Origin: Pseudomonadota bacterium
GTDB lineage: Bacteria > Pseudomonadota > Gammaproteobacteria > Xanthomonadales > SZUA-38
Length of the DNA stretch: 64,000 nucleotides
Assembly (NCBI GenBank): GCA_039195135.1
Contig: JBCCVP010000004.1
Location: 21,909-85,908 of the forward strand
Direction: 5' to 3'
How positions within the stretch are numbered: position 1 is the stretch's first letter; every line of letters starts with the position of its first letter. The position numbers and the translations under genes are program-made. This document shows positions 5,755-33,760 of the stretch, piece by piece. The notes below the pieces were generated by a model. That model searched no databases. It was not told where the DNA came from and saw only the letters and a list, made by a program, of their open reading frames with translations.

Positions 5755-6609
5755 GTGGAAGAAAAACTGAGGAGTGCCCGGCAGGCATTCGACGAGGCGC
5801 GCTTTACCGAGGCCGCGCGCCGGTGCCGGGAGCTGATGAACGAGCCGGACATCACGCCGCCGCTGGTGGCCGCCGCGCTGGCCCTGGAGGGGGGGGCGCT
5901 GGTGCAGCTCGGTCAATATCGCCGGGGCCTCAAATCGCTGCACGAATCCGTCAACGTCCACGAAGCGCTGGGGGAGGAGATGTCTACCGGCTTTGCGCAC
6001 AACTACATCGGTGCCGCCAGCGAGGAGCTGAAAGATCTGGCCGGTGCCTACGCGCACTACGAGCGGGCGTTGTATCTCGCTGACCAGGCGGCGGACCGGT
6101 CTCTCCAGGCCCGGGTGCTCGCCAATCTCGGGGACGCGCTGGTGACGGACGGCAAACCGGAGCAGGCCCTGGTGCATCTGAAGCGGGCGGCCGGCTGCGC
6201 GCAAGCGGTTGAAGAATGGTCCCTGCTGGGCTGGGTGGAGGGGGCAACGGCTCGCGCCCTGATGAGCACCGGCGATCTGGAGCAGGCCGGTTTGTATTTT
6301 GAAAACGCCATCACCCACAGCCACGCCGGGTCCGGCGCGCGCGCCGAGGGGGAGATCCTGCTGCACTTTGGCAATTACCTTAAGGCGATGAATCTCAAGG
6401 AGCAGGCGCTGGAGAACTATCGCTCGGCGCTCAGGATATTTGCGCGCGTCAACGCGCGCTGGGGCATCCGCCGAGCCCATCGGGCTCTGTCGGATTTTTA
6501 TGCCGACAACGGCCAGTACCAAAAGGCCCTCGAGCACTACCGCCTGTTCCATGAGGCCCACGCCGACATGCTGGAGGAGCTGACGGACGCCTGGGAGTCC
6601 CAAAGCTGA
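5755..6609 (+). CDS. TPR-repeat protein
   Basis: ORF is open from 5590, but its first ~55 codons are Arg/Pro-rich junk. GTG at 5755 begins a TPR-like sequence (repeated A..Y..AL motifs, e.g. AYAHYERALYLADQ and ALENYRSALRIFARV). Its stop overlaps the folA start (TGATG). Start is uncertain. Confidence 0.6.
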   Translation: MEEKLRSARQAFDEARFTEAARRCRELMNEPDITPPLVAAALALEGGALVQLGQYRRGLKSLHESVNVHEALGEEMSTGFAHNYIGAASEELKDLAGAYAHYERALYLADQAADRSLQARVLANLGDALVTDGKPEQALVHLKRAAGCAQAVEEWSLLGWVEGATARALMSTGDLEQAGLYFENAITHSHAGSGARAEGEILLHFGNYLKAMNLKEQALENYRSALRIFARVNARWGIRRAHRALSDFYADNGQYQKALEHYRLFHEAHADMLEELTDAWESQS

Positions 6610-7400
6610 TGAAAAGACCCACGATCACCCTGATTGCCGCATTAGACCGGCGCCGTGCCATCGGCCGCGACGGCGACCTTCCCTGGCATCTGCCGGAGGA
6701 CCTGAAGCACTTCAAGCGGGAGACGCTGAATAAGACCATGGTGATGGGACGACGCACCTTTGACGAGATCGGCAAGCCGCTGCCGCGCCGCCACAACGTG
6801 GTGATCACCCGGGGCGGCCGGAAATTTCCCAAAGGCATTACGCCGGTTAAGTCCCTCGCCGAAGCGCTGGCCATCGCCGAGTCGCCGGAGGTGATGATCG
6901 CCGGCGGCGGCGAGATCTACCGGCTGGCGCTGCCGCGGGCGGACCGGCTGCTGCTCAGTCATGTCGACACGGTGGTTGCGGACGCCGATACCTTCTTTCC
7001 GCGATTTTCCAAAAAGCGCTGGGCCGGCTGGCTGATGGATCGACAGGGACAGGACCCGCGCCACGAGCACGCCGTCGAGTTCTGGGAATACCTGCCGGCG
7101 ATCAAAGACGACAAGGTGCTCTGCCGCACTCCCGCCGAAGGTCGTCGACCCACGCGCATTCCCAGCTGGAAATTTGACGCGATGACCGATGCCATTCTTG
7201 GCGCCGTCGACGCGGCGCCGGACGGGCGCATCGCGTTTCGTGATCTCGCTGCGGCGGTAGGCAAGCAACTGCCGGCGGAGCAGCGCAGCAAACTCGGCTC
7301 TATCGGCTGGCACGTAACCTGCGTCAAGCTGGAGCTGGAGGTGCGGGGCACCCTTACCCGCGGCAAAGCCGGCGGCCGGCAGGTGCTCTACCGCACCTGA
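6609..7400 (+). CDS. folA: Dihydrofolate reductase with a ~100-aa C-terminal extension
   Basis: The N-terminal ~160 aa are a clear DHFR (ITLIAALDRRRAIGRDGDLPWHLPEDLKHFKRETLNKTMVMGRRTFDEIGKPLPRR...IAGGGEIY). There is no stop after the DHFR domain, and 100 further residues follow. The 3' end overlaps convergent apaH by 13 bp. Confidence 0.85.
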   Translation: MKRPTITLIAALDRRRAIGRDGDLPWHLPEDLKHFKRETLNKTMVMGRRTFDEIGKPLPRRHNVVITRGGRKFPKGITPVKSLAEALAIAESPEVMIAGGGEIYRLALPRADRLLLSHVDTVVADADTFFPRFSKKRWAGWLMDRQGQDPRHEHAVEFWEYLPAIKDDKVLCRTPAEGRRPTRIPSWKFDAMTDAILGAVDAAPDGRIAFRDLAAAVGKQLPAEQRSKLGSIGWHVTCVKLELEVRGTLTRGKAGGRQVLYRT

Positions 7401-8185
7401 AACGGCCGCTCCGGCCGGCGCAGGTCCACCGCGGTCAGCGCGCCACCCCACACGCAGCCCGAGTCCAGGCACACGGCGGAAGGCGTGACGTGGTAGCCCA
7501 GCGTCGCCCAATGGCCAAACAGTACGCGCCAGGATTTCTTGCGCTCTTGAGGCCACGCAAACCACGGTTTCAGGCCCCGGCGCTGGGTCCCCGGCGGGCC
7601 TTTATGCTCGGCGTCAAATCTCCCTTCTGCATCCAGATACCGCATCCGGGTCAGGGTGGCGGCGATGGCGCGGCGGCGGCTGCTGCCCGTAAGGTTTAAG
7701 TCCCAGGAGGGTTTGTTGCCGTAAAGCTGGCCAATGCGTTCTTCCCAGTCCCGGGCCTGAAGCAGCCGCTCCAGCTCCCGAGCCCTTGCCCGCGCTTCCC
7801 GCGGCTTCCACGTCGGGTGGATGCCGGCGTGAACCAAAATGGTCTTGCGCTTCTTGAACAGCTTCAGCAGCCGCTGATGGCGCAGCCAGTGGATCAGTTC
7901 GTCAGCGTCCGGCGCCGCAACAACCTGCGCCAGTTCCCGCTCCGGCCGCTTCACCGCTCCGGCCGCCAGCGCCAGCAGATGCAGGTCGTGATTACCCAGC
8001 ACGGCCCGGACCGATTTGCGGTGCTTGAAGGCGAAGCGAAGGACCTTCAGGGATTGGCCGCCGCGATTCACCAGGTCTCCGGCAAACCAGAGTTTGTCCC
8101 GGCCCGGATCAAACGCCACCCGATCCAGCAGCCGACGCAGGTCGTCGTAGCAGCCCTGCACGTCGCCAACGACGTAGCGGGTCAT
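7388..8185 (-). CDS. apaH: Bis(5'-nucleosyl)-tetraphosphatase (symmetrical)
   Basis: Starts at MTRYVVGDVQGCYDDLRRLL...GDLVNRGGQS...GNHD, the calcineurin-like ApaH signature. The ATG at 8185 was chosen over the longer ORF start. The convergent neighbour is folA, as in E. coli. Confidence 0.9.
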   Translation of the reverse strand: MTRYVVGDVQGCYDDLRRLLDRVAFDPGRDKLWFAGDLVNRGGQSLKVLRFAFKHRKSVRAVLGNHDLHLLALAAGAVKRPERELAQVVAAPDADELIHWLRHQRLLKLFKKRKTILVHAGIHPTWKPREARARARELERLLQARDWEERIGQLYGNKPSWDLNLTGSSRRRAIAATLTRMRYLDAEGRFDAEHKGPPGTQRRGLKPWFAWPQERKKSWRVLFGHWATLGYHVTPSAVCLDSGCVWGGALTAVDLRRPERPFQVR

Positions 8186-19335: not shown

Positions 19336-21384
19336 CTAGCGGCGATAAACCTCGAGTGGGGGCTGCGAGGACATCCAGCGGATGGCCACGACTTCACCCC
19401 CGGACTCCAGGTGGGCCAGATAGGCCCGAGAAAGCTCTTGGTCATACAAAAGACGCGAAAAGGGTTTGCCCATCGCCGCCATCAACGCTTCAATCTCCGC
19501 CTGACGCTGACGAGCCTCCGCCAGATCAGCCTCGCTTTCCATCCGTTCCAGCAGCAGGATCTCCTTGGCGAGTCCGATCTTCGTATTCACCAGGTGAGAC
19601 CCGGGCAGCTGGAGCGATTTGGCGGCCACCAGGCAGGCTGACCACATCGCTGGATCTTCTGAATCCGCGCACTGGCGGTATAGATGAAAACTGGGGACGG
19701 GCAGGGCAGCTCCCACGGTGAAGGCAAACAGGGTGGGGGCCTGAGGCCAAAGGCCCAGCCGGTCAGCTGGCGGCGGCGGTCCCATATGGCGACCGATTAC
19801 CTGCGCCAGCGCACCAACCACCAGTCCAAAGCCCGTTCTCATCGACTTTGCCTCCCCTGACCGCAGGAGCAGCGCTTTTGCCGCGGCCGCCTGACCGAGC
19901 TCAATTTGCGCGTAAGCGGCCGCCAGATAACCCATGGCGTCTTCTGGCTCGGTACCGATAATGCGATGAGCGACGTCGAGCGTGCACAAGACATCCTGAC
20001 CACACCAGCCTAACGCGATCCTGCTGGCGAGCGGATCAGTCGGGAAACGGACCAGGAGTTCCTCCCGGGGCCGGTCCCAGTCCTCCCGCGGGCCGCTTTC
20101 CGGCCATTTAGCCATATCCTCCAGGATCCGGAGGACAACCTGCGCTTCGGCGCTCGGGTCCTGGCGAACCCGATCCAGGAATGCTGTGGATCGGATGATT
20201 GGATCAAGGACCTCAAGCTGCCGTTCCGCCTCGGCGATTGCCATCTCCTCGGTGACGCAGGCTGGCGCCGTCGCCGGTAGCTTGAGTTTCAGGCAATCCA
20301 CCCGGCTACTGGACGAGGGAGCAAGAACGGGGAGGGATCCGTTGCCGCCGCGTTCGAATTGGTAAGTGCCCCAAACGTCGACTTCGGAATCCAGTTCGCC
20401 GTACTCGACCCAGGCGTCGAGGATGGGTTTGACCCGTCCCTTGTATTCCATCATCGACTGTACGCCCTGAAACTTCTGCTGCCGTAAACGCAGCGCCTGG
20501 CGTTCTAGCTGGAGGGCGGCCAGAGCGTCCACGTCATTCCGCTGGGAGTAAACCCTGGCCTCGAAAAAGAGGGCGAGCTGATTGGCGAGTACGAGGGTGC
20601 CCGGCAGCTTGAGCGCCCTGGCCGCGTTGAGGCAGATTGACAGCAGCGGTTCATCTTTGGCCTGCTGACAGGGCACATTCAGGCTGTTGTGGGGGGCCGT
20701 CAGCAAATGCGCAAGCATCCCGCCCGACAGCTCAAACAGTGCTAGTTCGGCTTGATCCAGCGTATCTTCCAGGGGGCCGCCGGCTTCCTCGAACACCTCA
20801 TACAGCGCGCGGACGATGGCCCACAATCCCAGATGAAGCCTGGGCCGCTCTGCTGCCGCACTCATCCATTGGGCGGCCGTTTCAAGATGCCCCTGGCGTC
20901 GTGCCAGATCACCGAGGAACAGGTACCCGACGGCATTGTCTGGGTGATACGAAACCAGCGCCTCGCCGTGGCGGTGGGTGCAGTCAGCAGGAGTTTCCAA
21001 CTGGCTTTGCTGGCAATGCACCAGCATCAACACCCGGGGCGCCAGTTCCTGGGGCGCGAGGGCAATCGCCGCGTTGAGCTGCGATTCGAAGACGTAGGCG
21101 CCGGGCCCCTGGGCCGATCCGGAGGCGGGACCGTCGGGATAACGCATCAACATCGCGTAGGCGACCTGGTGCTTCCACGTGGACTGGGGCCTCAGATATT
21201 CCCTGAACTCGGGCGAAAAGATCTGCGCTTGCCACGCGTCCGACAGGCGCGCCTGTTCGGCTCTTAGATCCCCCTCGGAAACGGTTACGCCGACCGATTC
21301 GAGATAAATCTCGCGACGCACCGTGACCGCGTCGGCAATGCCGGCGCTGGGAAAGGCTGATACCAGAAGCAGGGTCGTAAACAT
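19336..21384 (-). CDS. Secreted protein of unknown function with an internal ~300-aa duplication
   Basis: The ATG at 21384 gives signal peptide MFTTLLLVSAFPSAGIADA. The two halves share motifs (P[DE][ND]A[VM]GYL; C..A[AR][AK][AS]L[KQ]LPG) and conserved Cys positions. I recognise no family. Confidence 0.6.
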   Translation of the reverse strand: MFTTLLLVSAFPSAGIADAVTVRREIYLESVGVTVSEGDLRAEQARLSDAWQAQIFSPEFREYLRPQSTWKHQVAYAMLMRYPDGPASGSAQGPGAYVFESQLNAAIALAPQELAPRVLMLVHCQQSQLETPADCTHRHGEALVSYHPDNAVGYLFLGDLARRQGHLETAAQWMSAAAERPRLHLGLWAIVRALYEVFEEAGGPLEDTLDQAELALFELSGGMLAHLLTAPHNSLNVPCQQAKDEPLLSICLNAARALKLPGTLVLANQLALFFEARVYSQRNDVDALAALQLERQALRLRQQKFQGVQSMMEYKGRVKPILDAWVEYGELDSEVDVWGTYQFERGGNGSLPVLAPSSSSRVDCLKLKLPATAPACVTEEMAIAEAERQLEVLDPIIRSTAFLDRVRQDPSAEAQVVLRILEDMAKWPESGPREDWDRPREELLVRFPTDPLASRIALGWCGQDVLCTLDVAHRIIGTEPEDAMGYLAAAYAQIELGQAAAAKALLLRSGEAKSMRTGFGLVVGALAQVIGRHMGPPPPADRLGLWPQAPTLFAFTVGAALPVPSFHLYRQCADSEDPAMWSACLVAAKSLQLPGSHLVNTKIGLAKEILLLERMESEADLAEARQRQAEIEALMAAMGKPFSRLLYDQELSRAYLAHLESGGEVVAIRWMSSQPPLEVYRR

Positions 21385-21474
21385 CGGGATTTTATACCCG
21401 GCAGGTTCGCCCCGGACCAGTGTCAAAAGTCGGTCAGGCCAACCAAGGGCCTGACTCGACCAGTGTCCTAATGC

Positions 21475-22740
21475 CTAAATGATGGAGAGCGGCGAGTAGT
21501 TGTAGCCCGGAAAAACCGAGTTGACGATGCCTGGCCCGTTGCCCAGGACCACGTCCATCACCGTGCTGTTGACCTGGCGAAAATCCGTGCTGGGTACCAC
21601 GCCGTCACCGTCCCGGTCCTGGGTGGCCAGCTGGGGTGGGGTGCCGTAGACACCGCCGGCGATGCGTCCGCCGATCACCGTCATCGGATTGCCATACCCG
21701 TGGTCGGTGCCCCGGTTGCCGTTTTCGCTTACCTGCCGACCAAATTCGCTTTGGATCACAATGCAGACGTCATCGGCGTTTTTGTTCGGGTCCGCGGCGA
21801 TATCTTGGTAAAACGCCGCGACCGCATCCGACAGGCGGGAAATGCGCTGACCGAAGCCGGTGTTGGCATTCAGCGGCTGCTGGTTGTTGTGCGTGTCCCA
21901 GCCGCCCAGGTCCACCGTCGCGGCGGCGATACCCAGATCGAGCTTCCACAGCTGCGCCACCAGCGCGAGGCTTTCGGCAAAATTCTCGTCCGGATAGGTC
22001 ACACCGCCGGCCGGCGTATAGCCATCCAGATCCAGCGAATTGATCAGCTGCACCGCGTCGACGGCAGACTGGGCCGCCAGGTCGAGAGACCCCCCGCCGC
22101 TGTACAGTTCGGCGAGCCCGAGCAGATGCGTCTCCTCGTAAATGCCGGTGTTGGGGCTGAAGCCGCCGGCGGAATCCAACGTGGCAATATCCGGGTAGCC
22201 AGCCATACTGACCGGCGGCGTCGAGTCCGCCGCCAGCGCGGTGAACACCGCGTCGTTGCTGTGCGGAATGCCCTGCAGGTAGCGCCCCATAAATCCGCCG
22301 ACGGAAGCGTTCAGGCTACCCGGCGTGCCCAGCTCAATCTCCTCCTGCGCATCAAAATGGCTTCGGGTCAGCGCGTCCAGCGGATGACCGACGGCGTGGA
22401 TGAAGGCGGTGTTGCTCCGGATCGAGTGAAGGCCGGCGCAAAGCCGATTGAGGCCAAAGCCGGCCCCGCCGGGCAGATCGGCCAGGCTCAGCGTATCGGC
22501 CGGGGGGATGAAAATGTCGTCCCGGTCCTGCGCGTAGGCGGCCTGGGCCGCACCGCTGGTGGGCACCATGTAGCTGAGCCCGTCCATGCCGCCGCGCAGA
22601 AAAATGTACACCAGCAGCTTCGTGGGGGATGTGCCGGCGGTGCCGGCCTGAATGCGCTGGGTTAGACCCAGGCCGACGGTCGTGGCCGTGCCCGCGCCGA
22701 CGCCGGCAAGAAAACGGCGTCGATTGATGCTCGTCGTCAT
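21475..22740 (-). CDS. DUF1501 family protein (sulfatase/alkaline-phosphatase-like), Tat signal
   Basis: Twin-arginine leader is MTTSINRRRFLAGVGAG. The C-terminal motif SEFGRQVSENGNRGTDHGYG is typical of DUF1501. Confidence 0.85.
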   Translation of the reverse strand: MTTSINRRRFLAGVGAGTATTVGLGLTQRIQAGTAGTSPTKLLVYIFLRGGMDGLSYMVPTSGAAQAAYAQDRDDIFIPPADTLSLADLPGGAGFGLNRLCAGLHSIRSNTAFIHAVGHPLDALTRSHFDAQEEIELGTPGSLNASVGGFMGRYLQGIPHSNDAVFTALAADSTPPVSMAGYPDIATLDSAGGFSPNTGIYEETHLLGLAELYSGGGSLDLAAQSAVDAVQLINSLDLDGYTPAGGVTYPDENFAESLALVAQLWKLDLGIAAATVDLGGWDTHNNQQPLNANTGFGQRISRLSDAVAAFYQDIAADPNKNADDVCIVIQSEFGRQVSENGNRGTDHGYGNPMTVIGGRIAGGVYGTPPQLATQDRDGDGVVPSTDFRQVNSTVMDVVLGNGPGIVNSVFPGYNYSPLSII

Positions 22741-22753
22741 TGTGTTTCTCCTG

Positions 22754-24739
22754 TCAGCGCTGAATGAACTGGGGGGACCAGAGAATCAGCTTCACCAGTC
22801 CCGTAAGGCGCGAACGCCAGTCCCGGGTGGAAGCGTCCCGCTCCAGCTCGTCCCGGGGAATGGGGTCGTCCGCTCCCCACAAATCAGCGTTTGCCTGATT
22901 ACCGGGATAGTCCTGGGTCATAAACTGCAGGCAGACCCGACCGATCCTGGTGGGTGCGCTGGCGTAGCCGCCGCTGCCGGTCCAGCTGCTGGCGGGGGTG
23001 AAGCCCAGAGCCCAGTTGCACCAGAACTCCACCAGCTGCCGCGGCGTCGGATCTCCGCTCAGGCTTGCCAGCGTGATGTCGATGGCCCGCATGACCCGGG
23101 TCTCCTGGTTCGACACGTTGCGGTCCAGCAGCCAATCGATTGTGCGCCAGCTCTGTACCAGCGTTGTGGAGCCTTCCCAGTGGGTGCGGTTATCGGGGTA
23201 CCCGTCAGGAGTGCGCCAGGCAAACAGCTGCTGCCCGGCACCGTCATAGAGGCGCTCAAAGCTGTTGCTGTTGCCGTCGTTCGTGCGCCAGGTGTAGTCG
23301 CACCCGGCGGCGCGCATGGCCGATACGATGTATTCAAATGGCCGCCGCATCTTCTCGCCCCAGTAGCTGGGGCTTTTGAACTCATCTGAAAGCAGAATGA
23401 CCCGCAGCGTCCGGGCAATCTGGTCCGGGCTCTTGCGGTGGGCCAGAAAGGTCGCCGCCGCGCTGTCCACCAGCGACTGTGGCGGTTCGTCCGCCACCAG
23501 GCGCTGACACAGCTTGCGGGCAACATGCTGGGCGGTAGCCGGGTGATAAGCGGCGAGTTTGACGATCAGTCGGCCTTCGGTTTCGGCGGGAAGGCCGGAG
23601 GGAATCGCCGACACGCCGAGCGTCAGCACCGCTTTCGTCGAGTCTTTGTTGTGCTCGTCTTCCTGTGCAAAAAACAGCCCGGTACCGCAGCTCGTGTCGG
23701 TATTTTCGTCGCCGTAGCGCCAGCCGGTCATGGACTGGGCTGCCGTGAGGACGTCGTCGTCGGTGTAGACCGCGGCGATATCAAGATTGGGGTCGGCCAG
23801 GTATCCGAGGTTGATGTCGTTCAGTTCCGGGTCATTGAGTGCCGTATAGGGGTTGCTGCCGAGGGACTCGACGAACCTCGGATTGGCGTTCCCGTCGTAG
23901 GCGCCGGAGCCGAGACAGTGCAGCTCAAAAAGCTCCCGGCAGTAGTTTTCGTTAATCGCACCGCCGCGGCCGTTCACGTAGTTGTCCAGGTAGCGAAGCA
24001 TGGCAGCGTGTTTGGCCGACGCGTACATCATCTCGTAGAAGTTGCCGAAGACGTTGGCCCGCATCACGTCCCGATCCCAGGACACCATGGACACATACAG
24101 GTCGGCGTTGAGGCGGCCAAACACGTTGAGGTGGTTGTGCCAGAAATCCACCATCAGCTCCCGCAGCTGCCAGCGGCTGTAGCAGGCCGCAGTAAAGGTG
24201 TAGCGCTCAAGCTGATTGAACGGCCGCGTGTACTCGCTGAAGCCGTTACATTCGTAGGTGGAAAACAGCTGCGTCTGGCTTTGCCCGAGCAGGTTGAACT
24301 CCGACGCGTGGGCCGCAATGCGGGCGTCGAGCTCCGGATCCTCGGACGTGGGCGCCAGCTGTTCCTCGACGTAAGCCGCCAGTCGCTGATCGTCGGTGCT
24401 GCCAAGGGACTGAAAATAAGCCAGATCCCCGGTCTGGGCGAAGTTGGTAGTCAGGGACTCAAAGCCATTGGCCAGAATCACATCCGGATTGCCGGCGCTG
24501 CCGCCGGTGATACCGCGGCTAACGCCAAAGCCCATCTTGCTGAGCACGCGCACCGCAAAGGGCGGTGTGAGGGTGCCGTCCGATCCTCCCTTGGGGCTTG
24601 CGACCCCGCGCCGATCGGCCCCGGGTTTGCGTTCAGCGGTTGATCCCTGAGCGGGAACACTGGCCAGGCCTGCGAGCGATCCTGCTCCGGCGGCCTTGAG
24701 AAAGTGGCGACGTCCTGTCTGATGGAAGGGGGTCCGCAT
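22754..24739 (-). CDS. DUF1800 family protein, Tat-like signal
   Basis: Leader is GRRHFLKAAGAGSLAGLA. The DFWHNHLNVF motif is characteristic of DUF1800. Lies 13 bp upstream of the DUF1501 gene, the usual pairing. Confidence 0.85.
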   Translation of the reverse strand: MRTPFHQTGRRHFLKAAGAGSLAGLASVPAQGSTAERKPGADRRGVASPKGGSDGTLTPPFAVRVLSKMGFGVSRGITGGSAGNPDVILANGFESLTTNFAQTGDLAYFQSLGSTDDQRLAAYVEEQLAPTSEDPELDARIAAHASEFNLLGQSQTQLFSTYECNGFSEYTRPFNQLERYTFTAACYSRWQLRELMVDFWHNHLNVFGRLNADLYVSMVSWDRDVMRANVFGNFYEMMYASAKHAAMLRYLDNYVNGRGGAINENYCRELFELHCLGSGAYDGNANPRFVESLGSNPYTALNDPELNDINLGYLADPNLDIAAVYTDDDVLTAAQSMTGWRYGDENTDTSCGTGLFFAQEDEHNKDSTKAVLTLGVSAIPSGLPAETEGRLIVKLAAYHPATAQHVARKLCQRLVADEPPQSLVDSAAATFLAHRKSPDQIARTLRVILLSDEFKSPSYWGEKMRRPFEYIVSAMRAAGCDYTWRTNDGNSNSFERLYDGAGQQLFAWRTPDGYPDNRTHWEGSTTLVQSWRTIDWLLDRNVSNQETRVMRAIDITLASLSGDPTPRQLVEFWCNWALGFTPASSWTGSGGYASAPTRIGRVCLQFMTQDYPGNQANADLWGADDPIPRDELERDASTRDWRSRLTGLVKLILWSPQFIQR

Positions 24740-24872: not shown

Positions 24873-26165
24873 TCAGGTTGCCGGTTTTTTCAGCCGTGTA
24901 CTGATCTCCGATTTGGCTTCGGCGAGTATCGACTGGCGATCCAGCGAACCCACGATGTCCCGCACCGTCTGCTTCGGCCCGTTGCTGCCCCAGGATTTGC
25001 CGTTGATCAGGTAAGCCTCGGCGGCTCGACCGACAAGGTAGGTGGCGTAGTAGGCAAGGGCGCCCTGGGCAACGCCGGTGACAGCGACGGAAAAACCCGC
25101 GCTCAGCGTCTTGAGGGCCGAGGACACCAGGTGTACGCCCCACACGGCCCCCATCAGAGCGGCAAGCTGCGCGGCGATGGTGGCCAGCACTCGCCCGCTT
25201 TCCCGCCGCGTCATCGGCAGGCCGTAAACCCGCGACAGCTGAGCGACGAGCGCGACGTCCAAAGCCGCCGCCGCCAGCAGGTCTGCGACCGGCACCGGGT
25301 TAAGGGCGACGGCAACCCCTTTGGTAAGGCTGTAGGTGCGCAGCACCTTTTCCGCAATCTGCCGCCGGGCCTTCACGAGCCGCGTGGACACCTGGTCGGT
25401 CAGGCGTCCGGCAAACAAAGCTGCGTTCAGCGCCGCCAGGGTTTTGCCCTCCGCTTCCAGCACCTCCCAGATGCGCTCCTTCAGCGCCTGCACGTCGGGC
25501 TCCCGAGCCCGCTGCTCTTCCCGCTCCGAGCCGTCCGCGTTCTGCACGATCACGGTCTGGGGCCGGGGACTGGCGGCCACCGGCAGGATGTTGCCCGGCT
25601 GTACCAGACCTTCGCACTGAGCCCTAAGCGCCGCCAGCAGCTGCGCCGTTTCTGCCGCGGTGTAGCGGTCCGTTTTGTTCAGTACGGCAAGGATCGGGCG
25701 GTGCGCAGCGGCCACGATGCGCATGGCCCGGATCTCCGCCTGGGAGATATCACCGTCCAGAACGAACACCACCAGATCAGCCCGCTCCGCCACCTCAAAC
25801 GCCAGCTTCTCCCGCGCCTCCCCGTCGAGCTCGTTGATGCCGGGCGTGTCAATAAGATGTACGCCGCCGCTGCGGGCGTCGTGCCAGCGGGTGGTCTGGG
25901 GCTGGCGGGTTTCGCCGTGGAGCGGACTGACGGAAAACAGCGCCTCCCCGACCAGGGCGTTCAGCAACGAAGACTTGCCGGCGCTGACTTTGCCAAATAC
26001 GGCCAGGTGGATTTCGCCCCGGTCCAGCTTCTCGGTCATCGCCTCAACCTGGGCGTAGTCGGCTTCCAGCTCTGCCCGAATCTCCTCAGGGATGCTGCGA
26101 TCGTTCAGCAGGTCCCGCAGGTTCTCGGCCGCTTTGAGCAGATGCTGATCAGCGGGCTTATCCAT
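24873..26165 (-). CDS. GTPase with C-terminal DUF697-like membrane-associating region (paralogue B)
   Basis: The ATG at 26165 overlaps the upstream gene's stop by 8 bp. G1 is GKVSAGKSSLLNAL, G3 is DTPG, G4 is NKTD. The hydrophobic C-terminal region is GVAVALNPVPVADLL...GFSVAVTGVAQGALAYYATYLVG. Confidence 0.8.
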   Translation of the reverse strand: MDKPADQHLLKAAENLRDLLNDRSIPEEIRAELEADYAQVEAMTEKLDRGEIHLAVFGKVSAGKSSLLNALVGEALFSVSPLHGETRQPQTTRWHDARSGGVHLIDTPGINELDGEAREKLAFEVAERADLVVFVLDGDISQAEIRAMRIVAAAHRPILAVLNKTDRYTAAETAQLLAALRAQCEGLVQPGNILPVAASPRPQTVIVQNADGSEREEQRAREPDVQALKERIWEVLEAEGKTLAALNAALFAGRLTDQVSTRLVKARRQIAEKVLRTYSLTKGVAVALNPVPVADLLAAAALDVALVAQLSRVYGLPMTRRESGRVLATIAAQLAALMGAVWGVHLVSSALKTLSAGFSVAVTGVAQGALAYYATYLVGRAAEAYLINGKSWGSNGPKQTVRDIVGSLDRQSILAEAKSEISTRLKKPAT

Positions 26166-27624
26166 CGCTTCCTCCGCCGCGCCGCAGCTGCCGAAGGGCG
26201 AGTTTGGCATAGTCCACCACGCGCTCCTCCGCCGCCTCATCCAGGCTTTTACCAAACTGCTCCGCCGCAAATACCGGGTCCAGCGCCCGCTGCTCCTCCA
26301 GCGACGCGCAGACCGAGCGTCCCAGGCTGTCGAAAATCATGCCGTAGGCGGCGGCGTGGATGACGCCGCCGGTGAGGGTACCGATGCCCGGAAAAGCCTT
26401 AAACGCATTGCCGGTAACGGCAAGCACCAAAGCGGTGGTCTTTTTGAGCCGGTCGCCGGCGAGGGACAGAAAACGGTCGATCTCAATCTCCTTGACCGGC
26501 ACTTCGTACAGGGTGCCCAGTTCGCGCAGAAAACGGGTGGCCAGCGCCGCCTGGATAATGAGGTCGGAGCCCGGCGTGATGGCCGCCAGCGCCCCGATCA
26601 CCGCCCGCCGCGCGTACTTTTCCGTAATGGCTTCACCCTCCGCCTGGCGATGGGAGGTCTCCGCCTGTTCGAGCTTTTCGCTGGCCAGCTGCACGCTGGC
26701 CCGCTCCCGGTCCGCGTCGAGGCTTTGCCGGCCCAGCAGCTGATCAATCGCCTGCCACAGGGGCTCCACGTCCGCCGGCCGCTCGCGGGTGGTCGTCTGT
26801 TCCACATCGGCGCGCTGTACCAGTACCTGCTCCTGGTGGCCGGCGGAGACCGCCACCACGGCGATGGCCCGGTCATCCAGACGCTGACCGAGCGAGTCGG
26901 TCAGCTGTGCAAGCTCCTCGGCGCTGTAGCGATCGGCCTTATTCAGCGCCACCACCAGAGGTTTTTGAAAGGTCTGCAGCCGCTCCAGCGCCCGGGCGTC
27001 ATCCCGATCGAGGTCGCCGTCGGCCACGTAGACGACCACGTGGGCCCGGGTGGCTTCGTCGGCCGCCGCCGGCTCAAGGTCCGCGGTGGCTTCGTGGCCC
27101 AGGCCGGGCAGGTCGGCAAGCTGCACGATCCGGCCGCGCCGCTCGCCGCGAAAATGAGCGATCCGAGTGGTGGTGCCGCCGCGCACGTCGCTGGTCGACT
27201 GCTGTTCTGGCAGCAGCGCGGAGATCAGCGCGCTTTTGCCGGCGGAAGCGCCGCCGAACAGGGCAATAAACTGCTCGCCCGACTCGGATCGCCGGTCAAG
27301 CTCCTTCAATTCCCGCTCTGCCTGGCCCACCGCCGCGCCCTTTCCCCGGGCATGCTCGATGCGGTCCCGCAGCGACTCCGGATCCACCACCGGCGGCGCC
27401 CGGCGCTGTTCCCGCGGCGGACCCCGCAGCAGCCGCAGCCCCAGCCAGGTGCTCGCCGCGGCAAAAGCCAGCGCAAGGCCGCCGAAGACCGGCGGCGCCC
27501 AGGGTCCGATCGCCCGCAGGCGCTCGAGCACCGACAGCAGCAGGTCGGCAGAGAGCAGAAGTGCCACCAGACTTAAAGCGGCAAACAGGGCGACGAGAAT
27601 GGCGCCCAGCGTTCGAACGGTCAT
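26158..27624 (-). CDS. Membrane-anchored GTPase with DUF697-like C-terminal region (paralogue A)
   Basis: Has two N-terminal TM helices. G1 is GGASAGKSALISAL, G3 is DLPG, G4 is NKAD. The C-terminal region is AVIGALAAITPGSDL...AFPGIGTLTGGVIHAAAYGMI. Confidence 0.8.
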   Translation of the reverse strand: MTVRTLGAILVALFAALSLVALLLSADLLLSVLERLRAIGPWAPPVFGGLALAFAAASTWLGLRLLRGPPREQRRAPPVVDPESLRDRIEHARGKGAAVGQAERELKELDRRSESGEQFIALFGGASAGKSALISALLPEQQSTSDVRGGTTTRIAHFRGERRGRIVQLADLPGLGHEATADLEPAAADEATRAHVVVYVADGDLDRDDARALERLQTFQKPLVVALNKADRYSAEELAQLTDSLGQRLDDRAIAVVAVSAGHQEQVLVQRADVEQTTTRERPADVEPLWQAIDQLLGRQSLDADRERASVQLASEKLEQAETSHRQAEGEAITEKYARRAVIGALAAITPGSDLIIQAALATRFLRELGTLYEVPVKEIEIDRFLSLAGDRLKKTTALVLAVTGNAFKAFPGIGTLTGGVIHAAAYGMIFDSLGRSVCASLEEQRALDPVFAAEQFGKSLDEAAEERVVDYAKLALRQLRRGGGSDG

Positions 27625-27723
27625 CAGCAGATTATCGCACGGTGGCCCGGGCGGGCAGGGTGGAGATGGTTGGGTTCGGCGCGACGGGTGCCCTGGTGCT
27701 TCAGGGCAGGGCCGCAGATCTGC

Positions 27724-29082
27724 TCAGCCCGCGAAGGCGAGCTTTTTGAGCCAGGTTGGTCGCTGGGACTCCCAGGACTCCATGATCAGATTGGGGTCGA
27801 GCCCAAACTCGCCGGAGGCCAGTCCTCGCTTGATGCTGACCGGCTGATCCTCATGCTGGTGATTGTAGTCCCGCAGGTCGACCCGCTCGAGCTTCTCCAG
27901 CGGGCGCTTGTTCTGGTTCAGCACCATCAGCACCACGGGCTGGATGCGCTGGTCCACGTTCTGTTCCTTGATCAGCGCCACCTCGCCGGTGCTCAGTTCC
28001 ACCAGCGTTCCGGTCGGGTAAATACCCAGGGCCTGAATGAACTCCTCCACCAGCTGGGCCTGGAACAGCACATCCCGATGGTCGTAGAGGAAGTCCGTCG
28101 CGGCCGCCGCCGTGTGCACCCGGTCGGTGTGTGGCCGTAGGCTCGTCATGGCGTCATAGGTATCTGTCAAGCCGGCGATGCGGGCCAGCAGCGGAATCTG
28201 ATCGCCAAATTTGCCTTCCGGGTAGCCGGAGCCGTCAAACCGCTCGTGGTGATTCTCCACCACCTCGATAATGTCGTCGCCGATGCCGACGCAGCGGTCC
28301 AGGATCTGTACGCCGTCCGTGACGTGGGCTCGAACCTTCTCCACCTCTTCCTCAGTAAGCGGGCCCTGCTTCTCCAGCAGTCGCCGGGGCAGGCGGGCTT
28401 TGCCCACCTCGCACAGCAGGGATCCCAGCGCCAGCCGGTCAAGCTGCTGCTCGCTGAGCCCGAGGTGGCGGCCGAGCACGGTGGACAGTACCGCCATGCG
28501 CACCGAGTGGCCGTAGGAATAGGAATCGCGATCGCGCAGCTTGATCATCCAGACAAAAGCGTCCGGGTGCCGGATGATGCTCTGCACCATATGCCGCGCC
28601 GTGCGCTTGACCCCGCGAACCGTCAAACCCCGGCCGACGCGCACGTCGTCTACCGCGCTGGCCACTTCCCGGGAGAGATCGAGATGGAATTGCTGCGCCC
28701 GCTTCATTTCCTTACGGAACCCTTTCGGGGCGTTGTAGAAATCGGAGCGGATCTTGATGGGAACCGCGGTGATACCGAAGTTACCCTCGTGAGGGCCAAG
28801 TCGGCGCGCCGGCGACGGCACGTCGCGCTCAATGTCATCTTCAAATCGCTGACCGGGTCGCCATGGCCGATTGGCAATGGAGTCAGCATTGGGGGGAACT
28901 CCCCGGAGCACGTCGACGTAGACGAAACTGCAGTACTTCTGCAGCGCGGAGATATCGCGCTCGCCACGGATGACGAACCCTTGGAAAGGAAACGGCGTAG
29001 ACAACCACGGCCGGTCAAGCTGGCATACGTACATGCCCTTGATCAGATTGTCGACTTCGACCTGTACCTGTTCAACTCGCAT
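27724..29082 (-). CDS. HD-GYP domain protein (putative c-di-GMP phosphodiesterase) with DUF3391-like N-terminus
   Basis: N-terminus is LIKGMYVCQLDRPWLSTPFPFQGFVI. HD-GYP core includes HSVRMAV...HHERFDGSGYPEG. Confidence 0.9.
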   Translation of the reverse strand: MRVEQVQVEVDNLIKGMYVCQLDRPWLSTPFPFQGFVIRGERDISALQKYCSFVYVDVLRGVPPNADSIANRPWRPGQRFEDDIERDVPSPARRLGPHEGNFGITAVPIKIRSDFYNAPKGFRKEMKRAQQFHLDLSREVASAVDDVRVGRGLTVRGVKRTARHMVQSIIRHPDAFVWMIKLRDRDSYSYGHSVRMAVLSTVLGRHLGLSEQQLDRLALGSLLCEVGKARLPRRLLEKQGPLTEEEVEKVRAHVTDGVQILDRCVGIGDDIIEVVENHHERFDGSGYPEGKFGDQIPLLARIAGLTDTYDAMTSLRPHTDRVHTAAAATDFLYDHRDVLFQAQLVEEFIQALGIYPTGTLVELSTGEVALIKEQNVDQRIQPVVLMVLNQNKRPLEKLERVDLRDYNHQHEDQPVSIKRGLASGEFGLDPNLIMESWESQRPTWLKKLAFAG

Positions 29083-29410: not shown

Positions 29411-32400
29411 ATGATTTTGACGCGGGTTTTAGGACTTTTTTTCGTTGCGGCGTTTGGGCTTTCTGCGCAAACGTCAGGCTGGGCCTCATCTCCCGTAGTG
29501 GATGTGTACACGGTGGACGCGGGTCTGCCGTCGGCAACCATCAACGCCCTGGCCCAGGATCAGGATGGCTACCTGTGGATCGCCACCACCGACGGCCTGG
29601 CCCGGTTTGACGGGCTTAAGTTCGCCATTTACCGGGCCGACGCCCGCACGGACGCGGCGCTGGCCGGCAATCAGGTGCAGGCGCTGCTGGTCGACCGCGC
29701 CAACCGGCTCTGGATTGCCAGCGAGAGTGCCGGGCTGACCGTTCTGGGGCCTGATCGGAACGAATTTGTACCGGTGGCGGCACCAGCCCTCGGCAGTGCC
29801 GATATCTGGACGCTGGCGGAAGACCAGGATGGCTTTGTCTGGGCCGGTCTGTACCAGGGTGGGCTCCGGCGCATCGATCCGGAGAGCCTTGCGCTGCAGG
29901 ACTATCCGGCCTCCGGCGCCCTGAATGGCGGCACCGTCTTCAGCCTCGCCGTCGACGATGCCAACGTGGTCTGGGTGGGCACGGTGGGGAGCGGGTTGAA
30001 GCGCCTCAGCAGCGACCGGGCGAAGCTGACGGACGTGCCGCTGGAAGGTGCAAACGTCTGGGCCATCGAGGCGGCCGGAAAAGTGCTGCGGGTATCGCTG
30101 TCCGGCCGGGTGGGCACCTATTCGCCGGCCACCGGCGATTTTCTTGAACTGCCGGCGCAGCCAAACGAGGTCACCACGCTGGCGCCACTGCCCGACGGCC
30201 GGGCCTGGCTCGGCAGCTATAGCGGCCTTGCCCTGACCAACAGCGCCTTCACCCGCGTGCCACAGCAGATTGAGAGCCAACCGGCGCTCCGGGATTCACT
30301 GCCCACCAATCAGGTCAACGCGCTGCTGGTGGACGCCGAAGGCAGCCTCTGGGTCGGCACCACCGACGGCCTGGCGCGGCTCCAGTCGGGCTGGCGCAAC
30401 TTTACGATCCATCGCCACGACCCGCTGGGCGATCGCAGCATCAGCCACAGCCCGCGCGTGGTGGCGTCCACCGTGCAGTCCATCTGGGTGGGCGGCGTCA
30501 ACGGCTGGCTGGATCGGATCGATCGGCAAAGCGGTGAGGCAACCCGCCTGCCGCGACCCGACATCGACGGCATGCCGGCCACCGGTGGCGTCTGGGCGCT
30601 CCAGCCGGTAGGCGAGTCGCCCCTGTGGATGGGCGTCACCGGCGGCGTTGTGCGCTGGGACACGGGGCAGGGGACACATCGCTTCTGGCCGGTGCAGCCC
30701 CGGTCGCCGGATGCGGGCCCCGTGCGCGTGGATCGGATCCAGCGTGATCGCCAGGGTGGGCTGTGGCTGGGCGCCGCCGGGCGCGGCCTGCTGCGACTGG
30801 ATCTTTCCAGCGGCGAGCTGGAAGACCTGACGGAGAAGCTCAGCGGCTCCCACGTGGAGCAGCTGGCGCTGGCCCCCAACGGTGATCTCTGGGTTGCCTC
30901 GGACCGTGGCCTCGATCGCGTCGCGCCCGAATCCCGCACCGTGACCGCGCTGCTGCCGGAAGCGATGCACGTGCTTGCCTTCGCTTTTGGTCTGAACCGG
31001 GACGTGTGGCTGGCGGGCGTCAATGGCCTCATTCGCTACGAGCGCACGGCCAACGCGCTGACCCAGCCCCAACCGCTGGCGGACGCGCAGGGGGTTCCCC
31101 GGATCCGCTACGGCGGGCTGGCGGTGGATACCGCCGGTGATCTCTGGCTGACCAGCCGGCGCGGCCTTTATCGCTATCGGCCCGCCAGCGGCCTGACGCA
31201 GCGTTTTGGACGCAGCGAGGGGCTGCCGGGCGCGGAGTTTCGCGATCAGCCCCTGGGGCGCGGGCCGGAAGGGGAGCTGCTGGCCACCCTGCGACGGGCG
31301 GTGCTGGCCTTTGACCCGCTGACCGTGTCGGTCAGCGGGGCGCCGCCGCCGGTGGTGATCGAGACGGTACAGGTGGGGGAGCGCACGCTGCACCGGGGCG
31401 CCGGCGGGTGGTCACCCGTGGACCTGGATCACGAATCTTCCGGCATTACCTTTCGCTACGCTGCCCTCTCGCTGATCAACCCGCAGGGAAATCAGTACGC
31501 CTACCGCCTAACCGGCCTCGATGCCGATTGGATCTACGCGGGCAACACGCGGGAGCGGACCTACAACAATCTGCCGCCGGGGAATTACCGTTTTGAAGTC
31601 AAAGCGGCGGATGCCCGGGGCTACTGGAATGAAAGCCCGGCCTCGGTTGAAGTCTCGGTGGCCTTTCCGCCGTGGCGCACCGGCTGGGCCTACGGCGCCT
31701 ACGTGCTGGCGCTGCTCGGCCTGATGGCCGGCGCCGCCAGCAGTTTCCGCGGCCGATTGAAGCGCGGGCATGCGCTGGAGCGAGCGCAGGAACGGCAGAA
31801 CTGGGCCGAGACCCAGCGCGACATGACCCTCTCGCTGACCTCGTCGCTGGACGTCACGGAGATTCTCAAGCGACTGCTGCGCGGACTGGCGGAGGTGGTG
31901 CGCTCGGACCGGGCGGTGGTGAGCGTGGACGCCGCCGGCCTGCCCCGGGCTCAGGTCCACGATGGTTTTGAGACCTCGGACCTGCCCAATTTCCGCGACA
32001 TTCGAAACACCATCAAGCAGCTGTCCCGGGCCTCCAGCGAGGAGCCGACCACGCTGTCCGCCATGGGACAGCTCGGCACCAGCATCACCGTTCCGGTGGC
32101 CACCGCGGATCGCGTCATGGGTGTCGTCACCCTTGAAACCGCCGATGACGCCGGCTACATGGAGCGCGATCGGATGATGGCCGCCACCTACGCCCGGCAG
32201 GCGGCGGCCGCCCTCGACAATGCCCGGCTGTTTCGCCAGGTGCGCAAACTCGCCGACGAGGCGGAGTCCGCCAACGAGGCCAAATCGGATTTTCTGGCCA
32301 AGATGAGCCACGAGATCCGCACCCCGATGAACGGCGTCCTCGGCATGACGGAAATGCTGCTGGAGACGGCCCTGTCGGAGGACCAGCGGAACTACGCGCA

Positions 32401-33760
32401 GGCGGTGCAGGACTCTGGAAACGTCCTGCTCAACATCATCAACGACATTCTGGATTTGTCGAAGATCGAGGCCGGCAAGCTGGAGCTGGAGGAGATCGAC
32501 GTGCAGCTGGGGCCGCTGGTGGAGCAGACGGTCAAACTGTTCAGCGGCGCGGCCAGCAAAAAAGGCCTGGAGCTGGGTTATCTGATCGATCCGGAGATGC
32601 CCCGGCATTACCAGGGTGACCCGGTCCGCATCCGCCAGGTGCTGATGAATCTGCTGAACAACGCGCTCAAGTTCACCGAACGGGGCCGGGTGCGGGTCGA
32701 CGTGAGCCCGGGGGCCAAGGGCACGCTGCGGTTTGTCGTCAAAGACACCGGTATCGGCATGGATACGGGAGCCTACCGGCAGCTGTTTCAGCCTTTTACC
32801 CAGGCGGACCAGTCCACCAGCCGACGCTACGGCGGCACCGGTCTGGGTCTTGCCATCTGCCGCCAGCTGGTGGAAAAGATGGGTGGCTCCATCGACGCTG
32901 TCACCAAGGAGGGCCACGGCAGCCTGTTCTGGTTTGAATTACCCCTGAAGCAGGTGGCCGACGCGGTGGAGCCCCGGCTGCCGGGCATCGACTGGCTGGA
33001 GCAGGGGGTTTGCCTGGTGCTGATGCGTCCCTCGGTCGCCCGGGATGCGGTCTGCGCTTTTCTGCGCTACCAGCGGATCGAAGTTGCGATATCTACCGGG
33101 GCGCCGGCGGAGCCCCTGCCGGCCACGCCGCCGGCGCTGGTGGTGGCGCAGGCGGAGGCGTGGAACCCCGAGCTGGCGCAGCAGCTGAGTCGGCCGGCGG
33201 ACCCGTTACCTGTCCTGTGGGTGGTGGACGAGGCGGGGGCCCCGGACCTGCCGCCGGGACTGCGGGCGGCAGCCACGCCGCTGCGGGCCCCGGTGTTTGA
33301 ATCGGAACTGATGCTGCGGCTGATCGAGGCGTCTTCCGGAGCGCAGCCCGACGTCGCGGCGGTGGCGCCGGCGGCAGCGACCGGCCGGCAGATTCTGGTG
33401 GTGGAGGACAACCCCATGAACCAGGCCGTCGTGCTGGAGATGCTCGACAGCCTGGGACACTCGGTGGACGTGGTGGACAGCGCCGCTTTGGCCCTCACCC
33501 AGGTGGAAAACGGCCACTACGACCTGATCCTGATGGATTGCGATCTCCCGGTGACCAGCGGCCTTGAGCTGACCCGGAGCCTGCGCGCTCACGCCGATGC
33601 ACGGATCCAGGAGGTGCCGATCATCGCTCTGACGGCGCACGCCGGCGCCGACTTCGAGCGTCGCTGTCTGGAGGCCGGCATGAATGCCTACCTGGACAAG
33701 CCGGTGAGTAAAGACCGCCTGCGGGCGGCCATTAATGAGGTGCTCACCCGGGCCGCCTGA
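29411..33760 (+). CDS. Hybrid sensor histidine kinase with periplasmic beta-propeller (Reg_prop/Y_Y_Y) sensor, GAF, HisKA-HATPase, pseudo-receiver and receiver
   Basis: 1449 aa. Repeated ...D..G.LW[IV][AG]T..GL.R.. propeller blades. Y_Y_Y region is [16 protein letters not shown], followed by a TM segment and a GAF-like region. H-box is [11 protein letters not shown], HATPase box is GGTGLGLAI, and the C-terminal REC is [11 protein letters not shown]...[10 protein letters not shown]. Confidence 0.9.

Follow-up and report, generated by a model that had tools for sequence, protein, structure and literature searches.

A translationally coupled heteropair of predicted membrane GTPases with DUF697 tails and its possible role at the bacterial inner membrane

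Within a 64,000-nucleotide (nt) stretch of a Xanthomonadales genome (assembly GCA_039195135.1, contig JBCCVP010000004.1, positions 21,909 to 85,908 of the forward strand; hereafter the window), two overlapping genes, here called A and B, encode paralogous proteins that each join a compact G domain to a C-terminal DUF697 region. The partnership of A and B looks obligate: most Gammaproteobacteria with these genes keep them side by side, in one orientation and overlapping. We favour, tentatively, the reading that the two proteins form a heterotypic device that uses GTP to maintain or remodel the inner membrane. The pair belongs to a catalogued but uncharacterised group of GTPase-DUF697 proteins; what is new is a heteropaired variant with the logic of dynamin-like proteins (DLPs).

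Paralogy, overlap and conservation of the A-B pair

Gene A (26158-27624, minus strand) was called as an open reading frame (ORF) of 488 amino acids (aa), and gene B (24873-26165, minus strand) encodes 430 aa counted from the ATG at 26165. Both G domains match MMR_HSR1 (PF01926) above the Pfam cut-off of 21.9 bits, A with 50.1 bits (E=3.6e-13) and B with 71.8 bits (E=6.4e-20). The G domain of A spans aa 118-300 (26725-27273, minus strand) and carries the G1 motif GGASAGKS at aa 124 (27232-27255), the G3 motif DLPG at aa 171 and the G4 motif NKAD at aa 228. The G domain of B spans aa 52-225 (25491-26012, minus strand), with GKVSAGKS at aa 58 (25971-25994), DTPG at aa 106 and NKTD at aa 163. The consensus GxxSxGKS, the switch-I Thr, DxPG and NKxD are invariant in the A family and the B family alike; among 20 A orthologues the invariant positions are G124, S127, G129, K130, S131, T151/T152, D171, P173, G174, N228, K229 and D231. 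Because these elements are invariant, A and B should bind and hydrolyse GTP, and both are likely to be active GTPases.

The C-terminal part of B (aa 253-409; 24939-25409, minus strand) matches DUF697 (PF05128) with 105 bits against a cut-off of 27.7 (E=4.3e-30), covering profile positions 4-161 of 162. It contains an NPxPxxD break, a YGLP loop and a conserved GKSWGxxGPK motif, and its invariant residues are N289, P290, P292, D295, Y314, G315, P317, K352, G357, S391, W392, G393, G396, P397 and K398. The DUF697-like tail of A (aa 338-463; 26236-26613, minus strand), delimited by hhalign alignment to the DUF697 region of B, scores 19.5 bits by itself (E=8.8e-4), under the same Pfam cut-off. Since the family profiles of A and B align through the tail, the A tail is, on profile comparison, a divergent DUF697; precomputed PF05128 matches are also present in many A orthologues. 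A first-pass annotation, made from the letters of the window, had assigned DUF697-like tails to both proteins. For B this follows directly from the Pfam score, whereas for A the score of the tail alone does not carry the assignment and the domain is recognised through profiles.

BLASTP aligns A and B at 36% identity over 225 G-domain residues (E=4e-22). Profiles of their orthologues align over 357 columns that include the tail (A 105-463, B 39-410; hhalign probability 100%, E=1.3e-44). By these alignments, A and B are full-length paralogues. Orthologues occur in 80 genomes at 40-79% identity, which argues that A and B are genes rather than chance ORFs. Within the same genomes, identity to orthologues is 40-66% for A and 54-79% for B, with A evolving faster.

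The stop codon of A and the start codon of B share an 8-nt overlap, the octamer ATGGATAA (26158-26165, minus strand), in which the ATG of B lies over the TAA of A. A Shine-Dalgarno-like GGAGGAAG (26168-26175, minus strand) is located inside gene A, 2 nt 5' of the B ATG. A mechanical ORF list offers a longer form of B that begins at TTG 26270; orthologue alignments together with the GGAGGAAG site support ATG 26165 as the probable start. At 54 of 65 evaluable loci, all possible B starts fall within the 3' end of A. Because a start/stop overlap is obligatory at these loci, translational coupling of A and B is conserved and is not a local accident. The first-pass description of A and B as paralogous, membrane-anchored and translationally coupled proteins holds up on these data and on the predicted anchors described below.

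A scan of one genome per species yielded 553 loci. The best 80 were analysed (numbered in the form L001), and 77 of them are informative for A-B adjacency. Gene A lies immediately 5' of B in 67 of the 77, across Lysobacterales, Chromatiales, Competibacteraceae, Woeseiaceae and Thiothrix. Taxa represented among the best 80 loci are Lysobacterales/Xanthomonadales, Chromatiales, Competibacteraceae, Woeseiaceae, Ectothiorhodospiraceae, Thiothrix and relatives. More widely, at least 4,807 relatives of B are present in the database at E<=1e-5, and a joint A+B profile retrieves 648 clusters (50% identity) at E<=1e-30. Clustering of all flanking ORFs at the 80 loci revealed no third universally conserved gene, the neighbours being clade-specific. 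Searches of 72,556 plasmids and 50,697 phage genomes returned zero homologues at E<=1e-10, and the window itself has a chromosomal, housekeeping context (hemE, aroB, a SPOR protein and a Cys/Met pyridoxal phosphate enzyme). The pair is chromosomal, vertically inherited and housekeeping rather than mobile.

Predicted architecture and relation to known GTPases

AlphaFold2 single-chain models have a mean predicted local distance difference test score of 87.2 for A and 83.0 for B, and predicted template modelling scores of 0.80 and 0.68, respectively. Both models run from N-terminal helices through a compact Ras/Era-sized G domain and a long helix to the DUF697 helices and C-terminal helices. A conserved beta-hairpin insert is present in both G domains (in B, G212, E214 and R219; modelled strands 203-208 and 214-219). 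The single long helix is modelled over 63 residues in B (226-288) and 46 residues in A (302-347). It ends in a break at a conserved motif, NPxPxxD in B and PGSD in A, and three DUF697 helices follow.

Residues 1-67 of A (27424-27624, minus strand) are predicted to form a transmembrane hairpin. This N-terminal region has Kyte-Doolittle peaks of 2.84 and 1.52 and modelled helices at 3-24/26-39 and 43-67, and the hairpin is followed by a basic stretch, RLLRGPPREQRR. We infer an N-in/C-in orientation, which would place the G domain in the cytoplasm. In B, the hydrophobic DUF697 helices 320-353 and 358-387 reach a hydropathy of 1.81-1.86, enough for a transmembrane hairpin. Under this predicted topology, A and B appear to carry complementary membrane anchors, an N-terminal hairpin in A and a DUF697 hairpin in B.

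By sequence, the two G domains come closest to EngA/Der, Era, MnmE and HydF, and the best NCBIfam model for either protein is the slr1306 family (NF049994), with 159.2 bits for B and 75.3 bits for A against a cut-off of 490. This cyanobacterial family model covers the G domain and part of the tail (B residues 19-380); A and B are related to the family and are not members of it. The scores for slr1306, Era and EngA all fall below their cut-offs. Neither GTPase is placed in a family of established function, in line with the first-pass annotation, which gave no assigned function for this arrangement. The genes slr1306 and sll0804, the latter encoding an FZO-like dynamin, have reportedly been described together, in a screen, as affecting growth at low CO2. 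The product of sll0804 is annotated as an FZO-like dynamin (PMC12223511). Our search of the literature on DUF697, UPF0283, slr1306 and sll0804 found no functional study, the full-text mentions of DUF697 being passing ones as judged by title. A sequence search of the PDB with A and B returned G-domain relatives only and no solved DUF697 structure.

In bacteria, DLPs are typically encoded as pairs in one operon, and the partners act heterotypically (PMC6104087). The likeness of A and B to bacterial DLP pairs (Cj-DLP1/2, LeoA/LeoBC, Streptomyces DynA/DynB, BDLP) and to mitofusin/atlastin lies in the presence of two paralogous GTPase genes adjacent in an operon. It appears to extend to the modelled succession of N-terminal helices, G domain, long helix, hydrophobic hairpin and C-terminal helices that A and B share with DLPs and mitofusin. 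Pfam Dynamin_N matches B with 52 bits (cut-off 27) and A with 20.1 bits, below that cut-off, and MMR_HSR1 scores higher for both. The P-loop GxxSxGKS and DxPG match GRTSNGKS/DSPG of MFN2 and the dynamin string GQSAGKS. Era-type K-loop GTPases are known to carry GxPNxGKS, with Asn at the position where A and B have an invariant Ser. Both proteins also match LeoA/LeoBC profiles (E=1e-15 to 1e-17), and hhalign links them to E. coli RdcA/CrfC with a probability of 93.8%. Further, the top Foldseek matches of the B model are MFN2, BDLP, LeoA, MFN1, IniA, Cj-DLP and Fzo1. An analogy with bacterial dynamin-like pairs, drawn in the first-pass annotation, is reasonable in view of the Dynamin_N match of B, these fold matches and the operon organisation of DLPs. 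A and B nevertheless differ from DLPs in length, at 430-488 aa compared with 560-740 aa for LeoA, BDLP and RdcA, and in having one long helix instead of neck/trunk bundles and DUF697 instead of a paddle. The dynamin likeness of A and B appears to be architectural and organisational, and not one of family membership.

Several observations weigh against reading A and B as a membrane-remodelling device. The joint A+B profile aligns with E. coli Era over 145 columns (hhalign E=1.3e-15), and its alignment with E. coli RdcA/CrfC is weaker (E=1.7e-7, 104 columns). Dynamin G domains are about 300 aa long and contain dynamin-specific insertions. A and B, with G domains of only ~175-185 aa, do not have the large insertion found in dynamins between G1 and G3; in RdcA, G1 (~aa 64-91) is separated from G3 (aa 226 onward) by ~135 aa more than in B. 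The Foldseek matches of B are weak, with whole-chain TM-scores of 0.28-0.34 and root mean square deviations of 13-28 Å, with E-values no better than those of Era/EngA G domains, and the top matches of A are mixed, comprising EngA-like proteins, LeoA, Arl13B, GIMAP (GIMAP7), IRG (IIGP1) and septin. The DUF697 tail of A is weakly hydrophobic (1.25-1.47), which leaves its membrane insertion uncertain. Strict coupling is not universal either. A YceI/cytochrome b561/YceI cassette sits between A and B in six Lysobacterales loci (L029, L040, L064, L066, L076 and L080; ~5900-8000), and in four loci (L023, L030, L042 and L059) B follows such a cassette and has no A within 8 kb.

The Era-like G domains could point instead to membrane-tethered translation or ribosome-assembly GTPases of the Era/EngA kind, with local membrane-protein biogenesis as one conceivable task. 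This would fit the best G-domain sequence matches given above. It is hard to reconcile with the lack of any KH, RNA-binding or ribosome-binding domain, with equivalog scores that are all far under their cut-offs, and with an invariant P-loop Ser and a C-terminal half made of DUF697, and we consider it very unlikely. Identity with a known ribosome-assembly GTPase was considered separately and rejected: the scores are 59.7 against 237 for Era and 64.6 against 306.7 for EngA, and Pfam detects no KH domain.

PADLOC profiles for LeoA/LeoBC match A and B with E=1e-12 to 1e-17, as might be expected of an anti-phage or conflict system of this dynamin-like type. These matches are restricted to the G domain. 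The plasmid and phage searches gave no homologue at E<=1e-10, the genes occupy a stable chromosomal place among housekeeping genes, and the 54-79% identity across orders is typical of vertical inheritance; no nuclease or toxin partner accompanies the pair. A defence role therefore seems to us barely credible. Identity with LeoABC-type defence was rejected on the G-domain-only matches, the lack of mobile homologues and the housekeeping context.

FeoB is a G domain fused to a permease, and Toc34/Toc159 are paralogous receptor GTPases. On these models, A and B could constitute a GTP-gated transport or insertion device in which the DUF697 helices of both proteins form a channel or receptor site, opened and closed by the G domains. 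FeoB_N Pfam matches are above threshold for A and B, Toc34/Toc33 are among the sequence and fold matches, the helices are Gly/Ala-rich, and the hydrophobic hairpin of B contains invariant polar residues (Q333, T363, Q367 and K352). Such a device is nonetheless unlikely in our estimate. Each protein offers two to three hydrophobic helices, those of A being weak, and neither matches a transporter family; the FeoB/Toc likeness is confined to the G domain, and no substrate-related gene is conserved nearby.

The product of E. coli ycjX is reportedly a GTP-binding protein, and YcjF is a DUF697 inner-membrane protein; the two genes overlap by 4 nt (L085, 3118-5573). The YcjX-YcjF system (a DO-GTPase/DUF463 protein plus a DUF697 protein) resembles A/B in coupling a GTP-binding protein to a DUF697 membrane module. 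It differs in that A and B fuse GTPase and DUF697 in one chain, with the fusion duplicated into a heteropair. Expression of ycjX-ycjF is sigma-32 regulated and the genes are often psp-linked (PMC3041696), and the GTPase family of YcjX is predicted to act in membrane stress (PMC11237479). YcjX is of another GTPase family: Pfam finds no DUF463 match in A or B, and alignment of the B family with a single YcjX sequence gives an hhalign probability of 4.9% (E=0.008). Alignment of the B family with a single YcjF sequence (E=0.03) is confined to 44 columns at the DUF697 core motif, and both of these comparisons are nearly uninformative. The combination of GTPase and DUF697 recurs in split (YcjX-YcjF) and fused (A/B) forms, an independent partnership that speaks for the membrane device we favour.

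Neighbouring genes and possible signalling links

Upstream of A lies a gene for a 452-aa DUF3391/HD-GYP protein (27724-29082, minus strand; Pfam DUF3391 E=6.8e-20, HD_5 E=7.7e-30), separated from A by a 99-nt spacer (27625-27723, minus strand). A hybrid sensor kinase of 1449 aa (29411-33760, plus strand), with Pfam Reg_prop propellers, Y_Y_Y, GAF, HisKA, HATPase_c and REC, is encoded divergently. The layout described in the first-pass annotation, with three co-oriented genes, a 99-bp gap, an 8-bp overlap and a divergent giant hybrid kinase, is what we find at these positions. It is possible that the HD-GYP gene and gene A are on one transcript. A promoter/terminator scan, which has little power, detected neither a terminator-like nor a sigma-70-like site in the 99-nt spacer; overall, it returned 0 promoter-like sites, and terminator-like sites were as frequent as in shuffled sequence.

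Linkage to the HD-GYP gene is far narrower than the A-B pairing. An HD-GYP orthologue is found upstream of A in nine of the 80 loci (L001-L009 minus L002, and L027) plus L081; the L002 contig stops within gene A. Of the neighbourhood, whose conservation the first-pass annotation had proposed to check, the widespread A-B pair is conserved and the three-gene block is not. The HD-GYP-A-B order holds down to 49% HD-GYP identity (L081), and farther DUF3391/HD-GYP homologues (45% and 42% identity) sit in unrelated contexts. The linked loci make up one Lysobacterales-like clade. They have the divergent Reg_prop/Y_Y_Y kinase in common, and frequently hemE, aroB and Cys_Met synteny as well. The kinase adjoins the cluster in L001-L009, L027, L029, L066, L076, L080 and L081, all Lysobacterales-like and several with hemE/aroB synteny. 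Because the clade shares its flanking synteny, vertical synteny explains the HD-GYP adjacency as well as function does.

The HD_5 domain of the neighbour is clear, at 104.3 bits against a cut-off of 27.2. The HD residues of HD-GYP structures are metal ligands. In this protein, alignment to 5z7c and 4mcw places C224-E225 (28408-28413, minus strand) at the HD dyad: LLCEVGK aligns with LLHDIGK of V-cGAP3 (5z7c) and MHDIGK of PmGH (4mcw). The HHERFDGSGYP motif is intact (aa 278-288; 28219-28251, minus strand). Compared with the HD-GYP phosphodiesterases PmGH, V-cGAP3 and PA4781 (4r8z), the neighbour is alike in its HD_5 fold and keeps the first His, the HHE triad and the GYP motif, but it has the Cys-Glu dyad, and an N-terminal DUF3391 domain instead of REC. 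Among the nine linked orthologues the dyad is CE, with SE in one case. HD is missing from the dyad position in all 120 of the closest homologues, which carry MD (34), SE (19), CE (18), CQ (17), AD (8) and others (SQ, CD). With the HD dyad replaced, phosphodiesterase activity of the neighbour cannot be assumed, and the first-pass labelling of this protein as a cyclic di-GMP (c-di-GMP) phosphodiesterase is not supported. A role as sensor or regulator seems at least as likely as that of an active phosphodiesterase. Judging from the dyad, an entire clade labelled as c-di-GMP phosphodiesterases may lack catalysis or rely on other metal ligands. A structural example of a degenerate HD-GYP domain is provided by PDB 9rbz/9rc0, an 'HD domain/sensory box protein' with Ser-Gln (LSQVGK) at the HD position, like the SQ variants of this clade.

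These observations bear on the proposal that A and B serve, in general, as a membrane module under c-di-GMP control, with the GTPase pair governed by the kinase and an HD-GYP phosphodiesterase. Divergent kinase, HD-GYP, A and B occur in this order in 10 loci, and cross-talk between a GTPase and c-di-GMP has a precedent (PMC6510439). We find this proposal improbable as a general function. About 57 of the 67 loci with A directly before B have no adjacent HD-GYP gene, the catalytic dyad is CE here and HD in none of the closest homologues, Pfam finds no REC domain in the HD-GYP protein to take phosphate from the kinase, and vertical synteny can explain the adjacency. Similarly, the link behind the signalling-controlled membrane function suggested in the first-pass annotation is weaker than proposed, being confined to one Lysobacterales-like clade.

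A broader regulatory explanation is that the pair forms a membrane-tethered GTPase switch that senses the GTP pool or a membrane cue and controls partners instead of reshaping the membrane itself. Its models are RdcA/RdcB and YcjX/YcjF, and the controlled partner in this lineage would be the hybrid kinase, the degenerate HD-GYP protein or both. E. coli rdcA and rdcB overlap by 4 nt (L086, 5136-8239), the same layout of GTPase and partner as in A/B, and RdcA (YjdA/CrfC), a dynamin-like GTPase, is homologous to B over G3-G5. Together, RdcA and RdcB switch on the diguanylate cyclase DgcE, an activation that requires GTP hydrolysis (PMC6510439). The parallel is limited in that RdcA is a soluble DLP of 742 aa, its partner is no GTPase, and the target is a diguanylate cyclase with MASE1 and not an HD-GYP protein. 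The position of the HD-GYP gene 99 nt 5' of A with no terminator detected, the retention of the HD-GYP-A-B order to 49% HD-GYP identity and the compact Era/Ras-sized G domain, like that of switch GTPases, would all suit a switch. Across clades, however, no one partner gene is kept with the pair, and the HD-GYP/kinase adjacency is limited to one clade with shared flanking synteny. Strong conservation of the DUF697 hairpin also points to the membrane module as the effector in its own right. We regard a regulatory switch as the main alternative, though still a rather doubtful one.

Other neighbours vary by clade. Downstream of B in the window are a DUF1800 gene (22754-24739, minus strand) and a DUF1501 gene (21475-22740, minus strand), both assigned by Pfam, followed by an ORF of 696 aa (19336-21426, minus strand) with coding-like GC content at third codon positions (0.71) and no match in Pfam or NCBIfam. 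A DUF1800/DUF1501 pair is also present upstream of A in Woeseiaceae-type L058 (3345-6375), L063 and L073, and 3.4 kb upstream in L070. The two genes lie on opposite sides of the GTPase pair in the two clades, and the sets share 24-34% identity; this may be a recurrent association or a coincidence. In Competibacteraceae, a gene for a 4HBT_2 (YbgC/FadM-like) thioesterase lies upstream of A in 18 loci and, in L018 (5899-6408), overlaps the longest-ORF start of A by 17 nt, and in 20 loci B is followed by a DUF3301 gene, mostly at a distance of 5-17 nt (L018, 9280-9603). These neighbours may hint at a lipid or membrane theme. In Chromatiales, a conserved 140-aa protein rich in Glu, Lys and Arg is encoded upstream of A (L013, 5947-6369, and eight other loci). 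It has no family match and is probably helical and coiled-coil.

Proposed mechanism and implications

In the inner-membrane maintenance or remodelling device that we favour, A and B would be produced at a constant ratio and assemble into a heterotypic complex at the inner membrane, on its cytoplasmic side. In a GTP-dependent step, their G domains would pair in the manner of G proteins activated by dimerization, as in dynamin-like pairs, Toc34/159 and signal recognition particle (SRP)/FtsY. Pairing would move the long helices, and this movement would be passed to the membrane-embedded DUF697 hairpins. The likeliest output would be maintenance or remodelling of the inner membrane through tethering, sealing, fusion or curvature control. 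The pair would then correspond in function, on a miniature scale and with an Era-sized G domain, to the mitofusin/BDLP/atlastin machines and to the heterotypic DLP pairs of bacteria. In this lineage only, the degenerate HD-GYP protein and the hybrid histidine kinase may add nucleotide-second-messenger or two-component control.

A bolder form of this proposal, to which we assign a low probability, is that A and B represent a class of remodelling GTPases not recognised before, minimal, heterotypic and integral to the membrane, a kind of bacterial 'mini-mitofusin/atlastin' with an Era-sized G domain, in which DUF697 would be the deforming or sealing module, driven in trans by YcjX in enterobacteria. 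If this were true, DUF697 proteins generally would take part in repairing the inner membrane at the expense of GTP. Should the DLP-like reading be right, the range of membrane-remodelling GTPases would reach down to a far smaller scaffold of the Era type.

For annotation, the Cys-Glu HD-GYP clade matters because the 'c-di-GMP phosphodiesterase' labels given there are attached to proteins that lack the catalytic dyad. GTPase-DUF697 proteins are numerous, as the clusters retrieved with the joint profile indicate, and we found no paper that gives them a function. A coupled heteropair with predicted complementary anchors would offer a testable entry to the function of DUF697, including that of E. 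coli YcjF.

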